Positions 2,682 through 7,246 of a stretch of 64,000 nucleotides of DNA are shown here, one piece after another; the first letter of the stretch is position 1; each line of letters begins with the position of its first letter. Location: NCBI GenBank assembly GCA_035331565.1, contig DAOLKO010000010.1:15682-79681 (forward strand). The letters are read 5' to 3'. The DNA comes from Blastocatellia bacterium (GTDB lineage Bacteria > Acidobacteriota > Blastocatellia > RBC074). The position numbers were made by a program, and so were the translations under genes. Below the pieces are notes generated by a model that was not told the origin of the DNA, did no database searches, and saw only the letters and a program-made list of their open reading frames with translations.

Positions 2682-4857
2682 GTCATTTCCATTTTATGTT
2701 TTTGCCGTGTTAACACTCGATACACCACTCATTGATCTGCACCTGCACCGCCTGCCGCGCATCGGCAAGAAGACCTCGGAGCATCTGGCGCTGGAAATCG
2801 CCGCCATCACCGCCCAAGCCAATCCGCGCAAAGCCACGGTGGAAGATCTGCTGCATTACCTGCCGATGCGTTACGAAGACCGGTCGAATCTGGCACGCAT
2901 TTCCGAATTGCAGGATGGCCAGGAGGCTTCCGTAGAAGTGAAGGTGCGTGTCGGCGGCATCATTCCGCTCAAAGGCGGTCGGCTAAAAATGTATGAGTTC
3001 ATTGCCACGGACGGCGAAGGCCAGGTGCGCGCCTTCTGGTGGAATCAAATCTTCCTGAACAAAGTCTTTACGCGCGGTTCGCGCGTCATCCTCTTCGGCC
3101 AATGGAAATGGAATAAGTATAAAGGTTACTTTGAAGTCGAAAACCCGGAATACGAACTACTGACCGATGAAGACGAGGACGCCGAAACCACTGCGATGCA
3201 CACCGCGCGGCGAGTGCCTGTGTACCGCAAACTCGGCGATTATCGAACACGACAACTTCGCTCCATCTTTCATCACGTTTTGACCAACCTGCCGCCGGAG
3301 TTTGCGGAGTCTTTGCCGGAGGAAATTCTCACGCGCTGTTCGCTGCCGCCGCGCGGCGAAGCAATTCGCAACGCCCACTTCCCTGCGGACGATGCGCCCA
3401 TCACCGATTACAACCAGATGCGTTCGCCGGCGCATCGGCGGCTGATTTTTGAAGAACTGTTCTGGCTTTCAATGGCGCTCGGCATTCGTCGCAGCCAGCG
3501 AGTCAAAGAACCGAAAGGTGAATACATCGAAATCACAGACCGCGTCCGCGAAGCCGTGCGCCGCATTCTGCCGTTCACACCGACCAATGCGCAGAAACGT
3601 GCGATCAAAGAAATTGTGGATGATATGACTGGTCAAGAGCCTATGAACCGTTTGCTACAAGGCGATGTCGGCAGCGGCAAAACTATCGTCGCCGTGCAGG
3701 CGATGGTGATTTCCGTCGAGAACGGCTACCAAGCGGCGCTGATGGCTCCAACTGAAATCCTGGCCGAACAACACGCGCGCAACATCAAACGCTGGCTGGC
3801 TCCGGGCAATTATTGCGTCGAACTGCTGATCGGCAGTCTGAAGACCAAAGAAAAACAAACCATCTACAAAGCCTTAAAATCCGGCGAAATTGACATCATC
3901 GTCGGCACGCACGCACTGATTCAGGAAGGCGTTGAGTTTCATAAATTGGGCTTGGCCGTGATTGACGAACAACATCGTTTCGGCGTGATGCAGCGCGCGG
4001 AACTGCGCCGGCGCGGCATCAATCCCGATGTGCTGGTCGTAACAGCCACGCCCATTCCGCGCAGCCTGGCAATGACCGTCTACGGCGACCTGGAAGTTTC
4101 CATCATTGATGAGCTTCCGCCAGGCCGCACGCCAATCAAAACCTTCGTGCGCGGAGACGACCGGCGCGACAAGATTTACGAATTCATCCGCGAACAACTC
4201 AAGACCGGACGACAAGCCTACATCGTGTACCCAATCATCGAAGAATCCGAAAAGCTTGATCTGCGAAACGCGACCGAAATGTACGAAAACCTGCGACAGG
4301 AAATCTTTCCCGAATACCGAATCGGTCTTCTTCACGGAAAGATGAAGCCTGCGGAGAAAGAGGAAATCATGAAGGCGTTTACTGCCAACGAAACCCAGAT
4401 TTTGGTAGCAACCACTGTTATCGAAGTTGGAGTAGATGTGCCGAACGCATCGGTAATGCTGATTGAACACGCTGAGCGATTCGGTCTGTCACAACTCCAT
4501 CAACTTCGCGGAAGAGTTGGTCGTGGAGCGGCGGAAAGTTACTGCATTCTGCTGGCGCAGTTTTCCAAAACCAAAGAAGCGCAAGAACGGCTGAAAATCA
4601 TGGAGCAAACCACGGATGGGTTTAAGATCGCTGAGAAAGATTTGGAGATTCGCGGCCCCGGCGAAGTGATGGGGACGCGGCAATCAGGCTTACCCGAATT
4701 TCGAATCGCCAACATTGTTCGCGACCAGAAGATTTTGGAAATGGCGCGCCACGAAGCGAGCTGTATGCTTGAAGAACGTCGTAACACCCGCGAGACCGAC
4801 CTATTAATTCGATACGTGCGGAACCAACCGCGATTCGGCCTAGCTCAAATCGGATAA
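2659..4857 (+). CDS. recG: ATP-dependent DNA helicase RecG.
   Basis: Motifs LHYLPMRYEDRS (wedge/N-terminal region), helicase motif I GDVGSGKT, DEQHRFG, and C-terminal QLHQLRGRVGRG. The exact start is uncertain: ATG 2659 overlaps the DUF4276 end, and GTG 2707 is an alternative. Confidence 0.9.
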   Translation: MPNRVGIESFPFYVFAVLTLDTPLIDLHLHRLPRIGKKTSEHLALEIAAITAQANPRKATVEDLLHYLPMRYEDRSNLARISELQDGQEASVEVKVRVGGIIPLKGGRLKMYEFIATDGEGQVRAFWWNQIFLNKVFTRGSRVILFGQWKWNKYKGYFEVENPEYELLTDEDEDAETTAMHTARRVPVYRKLGDYRTRQLRSIFHHVLTNLPPEFAESLPEEILTRCSLPPRGEAIRNAHFPADDAPITDYNQMRSPAHRRLIFEELFWLSMALGIRRSQRVKEPKGEYIEITDRVREAVRRILPFTPTNAQKRAIKEIVDDMTGQEPMNRLLQGDVGSGKTIVAVQAMVISVENGYQAALMAPTEILAEQHARNIKRWLAPGNYCVELLIGSLKTKEKQTIYKALKSGEIDIIVGTHALIQEGVEFHKLGLAVIDEQHRFGVMQRAELRRRGINPDVLVVTATPIPRSLAMTVYGDLEVSIIDELPPGRTPIKTFVRGDDRRDKIYEFIREQLKTGRQAYIVYPIIEESEKLDLRNATEMYENLRQEIFPEYRIGLLHGKMKPAEKEEIMKAFTANETQILVATTVIEVGVDVPNASVMLIEHAERFGLSQLHQLRGRVGRGAAESYCILLAQFSKTKEAQERLKIMEQTTDGFKIAEKDLEIRGPGEVMGTRQSGLPEFRIANIVRDQKILEMARHEASCMLEERRNTRETDLLIRYVRNQPRFGLAQIG

Positions 4858-4952
4858 CTTGCGTCCCGAATCGGTTAGGAGGGAGCCTCTCGGCTCCCGT
4901 CCTCCCACACTACCGGACGTGCGGTTCCGCATCCGGCGGTTCAGGTTGAAAG

Positions 4953-5225
4953 ATGTTGAAGTTTTCGCAGTTGATCCGTGTGCCGGCGGCAAGCCGGCGT
5001 GACTTTGCTCGAACGGCCGGATGGCGCTCGGATGTGTGTGATGCTCACGCAACCGGAGGTAGCCCTACTTTCCCATCTGTGCTCAGAGTTTCTTCGTCCC
5101 TGACCGCGATGATCCGAATAGTCCCTCAAATTCGGATTTTGCCGGCCTGCGAGCCTGTTGACTTTCGCAAGGGGTTGGATTCGCTCCTCGCCTTGTGCAA
5201 AGACCCGCTCGGACAAGACTCATGA
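4953..5225 (+). pseudogene. IS66-family relic: orf1-like C-terminal piece fused in frame to the first ~37 aa of TnpB (IS66 Orf2), then a stop.
   Basis: IVPQIRILPACEPVDFRKGLDSLLALCKDPLGQD is homologous to the TnpB copy at 13220 (MIQLVPQLRILLACQPVDFRKGLDSLLALCKGSLAQD). The upstream RRDFARTAGWRSDV parallels RRVLERADGARMTL at 13100. Confidence 0.6.
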
Positions 5226-5745
5226 TTCGTGGCGAGCGTTCGCGTCCGCGCGTCGGCGAATACCACCGGCCCACACAACGAAACGCCCCAGAGTCGCTCA
5301 CCGTCGCGTTGGCAGAGGGTGATTGCTTCTTTGAAGTAGGTTGCGGCACCTTGCTGATCAACCTGAGCTGTCAAGGGATTGACCAGGCACAGCGACAGGA
5401 ATATCAGGCCGAACCACCACGCTGATCTGATGGTGTCCCTGTCAATAGTTCCTCCAAATCATGCGGATCCCTGTGAAGGATTGGCCAACGGTGTTTCAGA
5501 CCGTTATGCGAGTGAAATTCAGTGGCGATTCGTACGGCCCAAGCAGCCTGTGACAACACAACACAGGCATCGGACTTTGGTTCGGCCTTGTTTTGTCCGT
5601 CCAAGCAGAAATCCGAACTACACCTTCTCGGCAAAGTAATAGTAGTTCTCTCCCTCGTCCTGGGCGTCAGTGACCCAGGTCAGGCCGGCATCGCGCAACA
5701 AGCGCTCATACGTATACTCGCCGAGGGATTGCGACCGGTGCCCGG

Positions 5746-6498
5746 TCATGGCGTCCAACCATAGGCAATGCTGGGATGGGTTTCGGGCACCGGCTGCCAG
5801 TCGCCGCCGAAGTGAATATAGGTCAGGCTTTCGTTTTTGTTTACATCGAGGAATCCGGTTTCGGTGTAGGTTTCCTTTAGCCCAAGCCTAGCAATGATTC
5901 TGTCCTGAAGGGCTTCGGCGTAGGTTTTGCCCGTGATCTTTTCGAGAATCAGCGTTAACAGGAAATAGCCCGAATTGCTGTAGGAATTCTTGGTGTCCGG
6001 TTCAAACTCCGGCGTGCCTTTGGCGGTCAGGGCGAGCATTTCATCTTTCGTGATTCCATTCTTCCAGTTTCTTTGCGGAGCCGAATCGCGCCTGACGTTT
6101 GGAATACCGCTGCGATGCGAGAGCATTTGCAGAACGGTAATTTTCGCGGCGTTCGGAACCTGCGGAAAGAACTTGTCCAGCGTATCCGTCAGCTTCAATT
6201 TCTTTTCCTCGGCGAGCTGCATCACCATCGCGGAGGTGTACATTTTGCCAATCGAAGCGATGCGGAAGCGGCTCGTCGAGGTCAGCGTTTTTTTCGTCGT
6301 TCCCTCAATCTGGGCATAACCGATGGCGCGACTGTAAACCACCTTGCTGTCCTGAGCGATGGTGAGACTTCCCATCGCTTTCTTCTTCTCAGCGAGCCGG
6401 TCAAAAAAACTGGTCGAGTTTGGCTGTATCCAGCGACTGGCCGTAGCCTGCGGTGAAGGACGCCAGCATCAGTATCGTTACGAATGGTATTTTGCTTT

Positions 6499-6502
<4 letters not shown>
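5746..6502 (-). pseudogene. Beta-lactamase-family serine hydrolase (class C/PBP-like fold), disrupted by a frameshift in an A7/T7 homopolymer.
   Basis: ATG at 6502 encodes a signal peptide MKSKIPFVTILMLASFTAGYGQSLDTAKLDQFF followed by TGA. A -1 shift in the A7 run 6403-6409 gives ...DRLAEKKKAMGSLTIAQD... joined to the listed ORF 5746..6375. That ORF has the SxxK motif (ASIGK) and the YxN motif (YSNSG). A further frame change near 5746 is possible. Confidence 0.6.
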
Positions 6503-6753
<251 letters not shown>

Positions 6754-6763
6754 GCGGGTCTCC

Positions 6764-7246
6764 TTATACGGTTAGGTCGTTCTCGGACTTCATCTCGACG
6801 GCGGTTTGTAAAAGTCGCTCAAACACGGCGGCGGTAGTGGCAGCCACGACCGAGACAAAAATCATCAAAAGGCCAATCATCACACCGCCTGCAATGTCCT
6901 CCTTACCGCGCTGAACGATAAAGAAGAAAGCTTCTGCCCCCACAATAAAAGCGATCAGGATCAGCGCGCAGTATTTGATCGTCCGCAAGGCTTTCACCGC
7001 GTGTGGCGAAAAGACCTCATTGGCTCCGATGTAACTCAATAGCTTGAAGGCTTGATAAAGCGCGACGAAAAAGGCAATCGAAGCCGTGTAGGCATACACC
7101 AGGAAGGGATCTTTGAAGTAAATCTCAAAGGGTGTGGCGTGCGCATTTCTGCCCTCAAGGTGAGGTTCCCAAAGCATCAGGGCAAGAGCGCCGATACCGA
7201 TAACCACGATGACGATCTGAAGAAATATCGTTGAGCTTCGTTTCAT
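6764..7246 (-). CDS. DUF2975-like integral membrane protein (four predicted TM helices), the usual partner of YozG-type HTH proteins.
   Basis: 160-aa hydrophobic product. It lies 10 nt upstream of the HTH gene on the same strand. Confidence 0.55.
   Translation of the reverse strand: MKRSSTIFLQIVIVVIGIGALALMLWEPHLEGRNAHATPFEIYFKDPFLVYAYTASIAFFVALYQAFKLLSYIGANEVFSPHAVKALRTIKYCALILIAFIVGAEAFFFIVQRGKEDIAGGVMIGLLMIFVSVVAATTAAVFERLLQTAVEMKSENDLTV

Follow-up and report, generated by a model that had tools for sequence, protein, structure and literature searches.

An open reading frame encoding a signal peptide stops within a run of seven identical bases just ahead of a serine hydrolase domain in the window, which denotes here the whole analysed stretch of 64,000 nucleotides from contig DAOLKO010000010.1 of a Blastocatellia bacterium, and this raises the question whether the hydrolase gene has decayed, whether a base was added by sequencing or assembly, or whether the run serves as a switch. 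All three readings had been offered by the initial annotation. We conclude that the locus very probably represents a fixed pseudogene remnant of a secreted S12-type hydrolase gene carrying two independent lesions, in an uncultured soil bacterium of the Blastocatellia (Acidobacteriota). It is an ordinary and already known kind of feature, namely gene decay by slippage and deletion beside insertion-sequence debris. The features of the locus are compiled in Table 1.

Table 1. Features around the hydrolase remnant (window coordinates; aa, amino acids).
Feature	Position	Strand	Basis or remark
DUF2975 membrane protein gene, first of module	6764-7246	-	Pfam, E 2.3e-30
HTH_26 (Cro/C1-type) regulator gene, apparently intact	6499-6753	-	Pfam
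PF00144 (S12 / penicillin-recognising) serine hydrolase remnant	5759-6502	-	homologous to residues 1 to ~250 of ~440-aa relatives
Leader ORF: signal peptide and first 11 mature residues, ended by frameshift-created TGA	6401-6502	-	33-aa product found on 8 contigs in the protein collection
Homopolymer T7 of the coding strand (A7 on the + strand)	6403-6409	-	read directly; +1 insertion in an ancestral T6
209-aa ORF (P0001), annotated as 'serine hydrolase domain-containing protein' (NCBI; called by gene callers)	5746-6375	-	HMV83667.1 and three other accessions, identical
Deletion/fusion junction	5758-5759		hydrolase homology ends after ...GCCTATGG; DNA comparison with L011, L012 and L133
Methyltransferase tail: last 45 codons and stop of a ~200-aa class I SAM-dependent methyltransferase gene	5618-5758	-	phmmer, tblastn; 45 residues at 5755-5621
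5' stub, leader plus ~75 initial codons, of a gene for a secreted hypothetical protein whose relatives carry HELFH	5223-5489	-	blastn with L151 and L152
Probable IS66-family TnpB, first 38 codons, abutting the HELFH-protein stub	5109-5225	+	Pfam and NCBIfam, sub-threshold

The leader ORF starts at ATG 6502-6500, where an AGGAGG lies 7 nt upstream and the preceding HTH gene ends in an overlapping TGA (ATGA), and it runs for 33 codons with the product MKSKIPFVTILMLASFTAGYGQSLDTAKLDQFF until the stop TGA 6403-6401, composed of the last T of the T7 run and the following GA. Deletion of one T restores ...QFFDRLAEKKKAMGSL... and gives QFFDRLAEKKKAMGSLTIAQD... in phase. The initial annotation had described this ORF and its stop within the homopolymer, and both coordinates and reading were found to be correct. 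Its further claim that removal of a single base joins the signal peptide to the domain bearing the SxxK and YxN motifs agrees with tblastn matches in adjacent frames: using a 438-aa relative as query, residues 2-28 are matched in one frame and residues 27-241 in the next. As both matches abut at the FF codons, the join of the two frames is not a product of chance. The codons of the tract correspond to Phe32-Phe33 with the ancestral reading CAG TTT TTT GAC. The tract had been placed exactly between signal peptide and mature domain; it does lie near this boundary, but about 10 codons past the region where cleavage of the signal peptide is predicted, where the Pfam match sets in (residue 30).

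In the restored frame, the protein matches the Pfam Beta-lactamase family PF00144 with an E-value of 1.5e-41 over profile positions 2-204 of 329, and it contains the SxxK motif with the nucleophilic serine (S83-I-G-K86, 6255-6244) as well as the YxN motif (Y174-S-N176, 5982-5974). While these two motifs are indeed joined to the signal peptide as had been claimed, the domain is not complete but stops at about residue 250 of roughly 440. This 3' truncation, a second lesion, had been missed in the initial annotation. A tblastn search with P0006 matched only residues 2-241, and residues 242-438 found no match within the 64-kb window. The 46 intact relatives extend 413-425 residues beyond the tract, compared to 221 in the window copy. 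Of the blastn matches exceeding 300 nt in relatives, 68 reach the break and end at 5749-5770; a contig end or a disruption of the relative makes the others stop short of it, and no relative aligns below 5740. The base following the junction at 5759/5758 starts the sequence of a different gene in a different frame, and residue 251 is the last of the restored frame (GWTP*), an end produced by this out-of-frame fusion. The junction is identical in all ten contigs of the same lineage that we gathered (see below), which is why we do not regard it as an assembly chimera.

Among solved structures, that of Pab87 (2qmi) comes closest to the intact relatives, and residues 25-388 of the 440-aa relative P0030 align to it with an E-value of 2.8e-34. 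The HxG motif of Pab87 comprises residues 302-304 (PMC2651629). In the alignment to 2qmi, the corresponding position is found at about residue 300 of the relatives and thus beyond the break. Intact relatives share SxxK and YxN with Pab87, and their alignment continues into its C-terminal (lipocalin) domain, whereas nothing beyond the N-terminal ~250 residues is left in the window copy. The relatives also differ from Pab87 in having D/N/G/E-T-G at the position aligned to its HSG and in possessing a signal peptide, while Pab87 is a cytoplasmic archaeal octamer. Membership in the CubicO family was considered and rejected, as the relatives do not have its position-specific motifs (YAEAF/L before YxN, FFYLN and a C-terminal ERY). 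Of the traits of a functional S12 enzyme, the window copy shows SxxK and YxN, but neither the third motif (HxG/KTG box) nor a complete alpha/beta domain, and instead of an uninterrupted frame from signal peptide to domain it has the TGA at 6403-6401 after 33 codons. Judged from these alignments, the frame-corrected product would lack the third catalytic motif, the part of the alpha/beta region that follows the break and the C-terminal domain, and the lost region would be needed for catalysis. The truncation thereby settles the question of the locus, because even the restored frame gives an incomplete enzyme. As a test for relaxed selection, changes specific to the window copy were counted at columns that are at least 95 % conserved in 48 intact relatives; they occur at 9 of 99 columns, the second highest count of 49 sequences and a mild excess that gives no firm indication of relaxed selection, the copy also being the second most divergent of them.

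To compare the tract within the lineage, contigs were gathered via the records of the 209-aa product P0001 in NCBI, ENA and Logan, which yielded ten loci (L001-L010) by a look-up that is biased towards frameshifted copies. They comprise two NCBI metagenome-assembled genomes (MAGs) of Blastocatellia bacterium (GCA_035333365.1 and GCA_035333725.1), three ENA assemblies and five Logan single-run assemblies (SRR3501849, SRR3501851, SRR3501853, SRR3501862 and SRR14234092). T7 was found in all ten contigs, including one strain variant, although some of the NCBI and ENA assemblies may share runs with the Logan contigs and these observations thus amount to at least five independent runs, not necessarily ten. 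The comparison is one at assembly level, at which a minority T6 subpopulation is possible. Nine of the ten contigs are 100 % identical to the window across the aligned span of up to 2.5 kb; the variant strain retains T7 despite eight SNPs relative to the window. Both T7 products (33 aa and 209 aa) are present in a collection of about 15 billion proteins, which contains neither the 251-aa product predicted for an in-frame T6 nor the 73-aa product predicted for T8. A homology search with the restored protein returned no match between 100 % identity, represented by P0001, and 78 %.

Beyond the lineage, the two syntenic relatives L011 and L012 have exactly the same flanking DNA around a T6 tract. 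A pattern allowing T5 to T8 between the flanks AAACTCGACCAG...GACCGGCTCGC matched 31 GTDB genome contigs and 108 times in 107 metagenome contigs, and T6 was found in 139 out of 139 cases. Taken together, T6 is present in all 141 relatives with identical flanks, and T5, T7 or T8 in none of them. The initial annotation had proposed comparing the tract length of orthologues, and the outcome is an in-frame T6 in 141/141 relatives against T7 in 10/10 lineage contigs. The in-frame T6 is the ancestral state, and T7 is a lineage-specific +1 insertion. The idea of the T6 tract being a recurrent mutational hotspot was rejected, since 0 of the 141 relatives deviate from T6.

It is worth mentioning that, among the GTDB relatives (L013-L043), contigs assigned by binning to Acidobacteriota, Bacteroidota, Verrucomicrobiota and Planctomycetota have the same 29 nt around the tract, and even those from MAGs of Clostridia, Bifidobacteriaceae and Akkermansia share them. 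At protein level, identity across these relatives is 62-78 %. The presence of one 29-nt stretch across phyla suggests either a wide horizontal spread of the hydrolase gene or mis-binning. Disrupted copies also occur among the relatives: of 64 with the whole gene within the contig (L013-L150), 46 are intact and 18 are disrupted elsewhere than at the tract, by an early end of homology in ten cases, a frameshift in five and an in-frame stop or deletion in three, some of them being long-read MAGs or possibly chimeric contigs. The closest relative at DNA level (L133:1507-2830, 83 % identity) contains a single in-frame TAG where relatives encode Gln (GYA*IDG) in an otherwise full-length gene of 440 codons.

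Of the readings originally proposed, genuine pseudogenisation is the one borne out, by T7 in all ten lineage contigs, T6 in all relatives and the additional loss of the 3' part. Homopolymers are classic error sites, and multiple frameshifts that are probably errors are present in the long-read MAG relatives L026 and L042, in line with the suggestion that the extra base is a sequencing or assembly error in a genome that truly carries T6 and a hydrolase gene without frameshift. This is very unlikely given that the same T7 was assembled in all ten contigs by different assemblers from at least five runs, the variant strain included, and at assembly level the suggestion was rejected. Several contig names (k141_...) furthermore point to MEGAHIT short-read assemblies, and short-read assemblies normally read 7-mers reliably. 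The other homopolymers of at least seven bases in the window sit in long stop-free frames (counted from stop to stop and not verified as genes) with three exceptions, one being an A8 in a frame of 57 codons and the other two being runs located 12 and 29 nt from the end of a frame; a second A7 within the hydrolase gene itself (6288-6294) is well placed in frame. The assembly therefore does not appear to be generally prone to homopolymer errors. The T6 product that a correct T6 genome would encode was not found in the protein collection, and even with a base error, the hydrolase gene would still be missing its 3' 45 %. The same loss bears on the proposal that the T run is a phase-variation tract, or a site of programmed +1 frameshifting or transcriptional slippage that tunes a periplasmic hydrolase. 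The sequence CAG-UUU-UUU-UGA-C does allow the tRNA-Phe to re-pair perfectly in +1 at a stop codon with a C after it, the shift would yield precisely the ancestral QFFDRL, and the ATGA overlap couples translation of the leader ORF to that of the regulator gene upstream. The programmed +1 site of prfB (RF2) is CUU-UGA-C, with which the window site shares, as a formal match, a slippery codon followed by UGA-C and a +1 shift that restores the frame. It differs from prfB in that a Shine-Dalgarno-like stimulator is missing, as the 20 nt upstream of the tract (gatacagccaaactcgaccag) contain neither a Shine-Dalgarno-like G-rich element nor a GG dinucleotide, that the site is not conserved in relatives and that the downstream frame is incomplete. 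With the in-frame T6 in 141/141 relatives, the tract is not conserved as a recoding signal either.

Contingency loci and transcriptional slippage sites resemble the tract in that a homopolymer is situated close to the 5' end of a gene whose product is exported; the run in the window, however, measures only 7 nt, shows no polymorphism in ten lineage contigs or 141 relatives, no T6 or T8 product being on record, and would have a non-functional ON state. Selection against slippage-prone A/T runs is evident at nine bases in many bacterial genomes (PMC1088944), compared to which a run of seven is short for slippage. The decisive argument is that the 'ON' state would still lack the HxG motif, most of the beta-sheet and the C-terminal domain. 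With no length variation, no upstream stimulator and a truncated 'ON' product, the proposed switch was dismissed, and we consider it highly improbable. Low-level +1 read-through at UUU-UGA-C, exporting a little of the 251-residue fragment with a residual or new role under control of the DUF2975-HTH pair, for which binding without catalysis would be a conceivable example, appears exceedingly improbable to us. A third alternative would be a functional, shortened cytoplasmic protein encoded by the 209-aa ORF (6375-5746). This ORF is uninterrupted, has an ATG, keeps SxxK and YxN and is identical throughout the lineage contigs, but with 0 to 8 SNPs in 2.5 kb, that identity is a matter of near-clonality and not of selection. 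The ORF is an internal fragment devoid of the signal peptide, the start of the domain and the C-terminal 45 %: the first ~12 residues of the domain match are missing along with the signal peptide, as is the third catalytic motif with the rest of profile positions 205-329, and its end arises from the out-of-frame fusion to another gene's tail. No GGAGG-type ribosome-binding site is present ahead of its ATG (GAGAAGAAGAAAGCGATG), and its protein cluster consists of a single member sequence, other relatives of 209-264 aa looking like contig-end or disrupted fragments. There is thus little to recommend a functional 209-aa protein, which we hold to be most improbable, and both the 33-aa and the 209-aa products are presumably without function.

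The pseudogene thus carries two independent lesions, given here in no implied order. One is the addition of one T to the T6 run at Phe32-Phe33, most simply explained by replication slippage, upon which translation stops after 33 codons. The other is a deletion or rearrangement at 5759/5758 that took the last ~190 codons and fused the stump out of frame to the methyltransferase tail, possibly with involvement of an insertion sequence. Apart from the added T, the restored 750 nt contain no further stops or frameshifts, so the inactivation is probably fairly recent.

The DNA beyond the break consists of pieces of other genes. As recG ends at 4857, a debris patch of ~0.9 kb (4858-5758) is located between recG and the hydrolase stump, which suggests an insertion-sequence-associated rearrangement and deletion. 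The methyltransferase gene next to the stump has lost its 5' three quarters, and the frame of its tail differs from that of the stump. A phmmer search with the tail gave 61 matches with up to 87-88 % identity, the best ones and most others being located at the C-terminus of the matched protein. Pfam methyltransferase families match P0168 above threshold and, more weakly and below threshold, P0157 and P0167; tblastn with P0168 places its residues 148-199 at the tail. To see whether the hydrolase is followed by the methyltransferase gene in relatives, a methyltransferase homologue was searched by tblastn against all 140 related loci, which gave a single weak, unrelated match; none was found in the contexts of L151 and L152, two homologues of the HELFH-protein stub. 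This stub shows 84-85 % DNA identity to L151 and L152, with homology stopping at 5223 in both, and carries ATT (5446-5444) in place of the ATG start codon of the relatives. The 38-codon piece abutting it is a probable IS66 TnpB stub, with matches to Pfam PF05717 (E 0.013, profile positions 3-30) and NCBIfam NF033819 (E 0.0013, profile positions 4-28) that, owing to the shortness of the piece, do not reach the curated cut-offs. No family match was obtained for 4858-5108, the stretch separating recG from the TnpB-like stub. By chance, a stretch of the methyltransferase tail (5618-5749, minus strand) begins with an ATG (MTGHRSQ...) overlapping the TGA of the stump as ATGA, leading gene callers to report a spurious 43-aa ORF in most assemblies.

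The locus resembles ordinary pseudogenes formed by homopolymer indels and deletions in its +1 change in T6, its second truncating lesion, the neighbouring stubs, the insertion-sequence fragment and the pieces called as short ORFs, and it differs from them only in that the 209-aa fragment passes for a normal protein in public annotation. Its biological weight is small, and its practical value lies in annotation: the 209-aa entries, like the ORFs of 33 aa and 43 aa reported for other assemblies, are pieces of genes that are dead and should be marked as pseudogenes. The homopolymer question could be settled here in the absence of read data, as independent public assemblies and the tract lengths of orthologues sufficed.

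The remnant is the third gene of a conserved DUF2975-HTH-hydrolase module, which has the same order in L011 and L012, and both upstream genes look intact in the window. The HTH_26 regulator comprises 84 aa here versus 70 aa in 7 of 11 relatives, in which it ends with ...EYKE[D/N/E]LP*; it is longer because a 1-nt deletion just ahead of the ancestral TAG removed the stop, while the HTH domain itself (residues 6-68) is unaffected by this 3' indel. The extended part of the ORF (6499-6560), owed to a second small indel at the locus, takes in the former spacer and ribosome-binding site and then overlaps the ATG of the hydrolase. In the variant strain (L003, GCA_035333725.1), all eight SNPs fall within 85 bp (6691-6775) at the boundary of DUF2975 and HTH genes, and none occurs in the other 2,416 aligned bases, which suggests recombination over a short tract or a local mis-assembly. 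On the other side of the locus, just upstream of recG, overlapping genes for an AAA_15/AAA_21 ATPase (391 aa) and a DUF4276 protein (210 aa) are encoded at 877-2681 on the plus strand, a pair that matches the PADLOC candidate defence pair HEC-01A (E 5e-63) and HEC-01B (E 3e-19).
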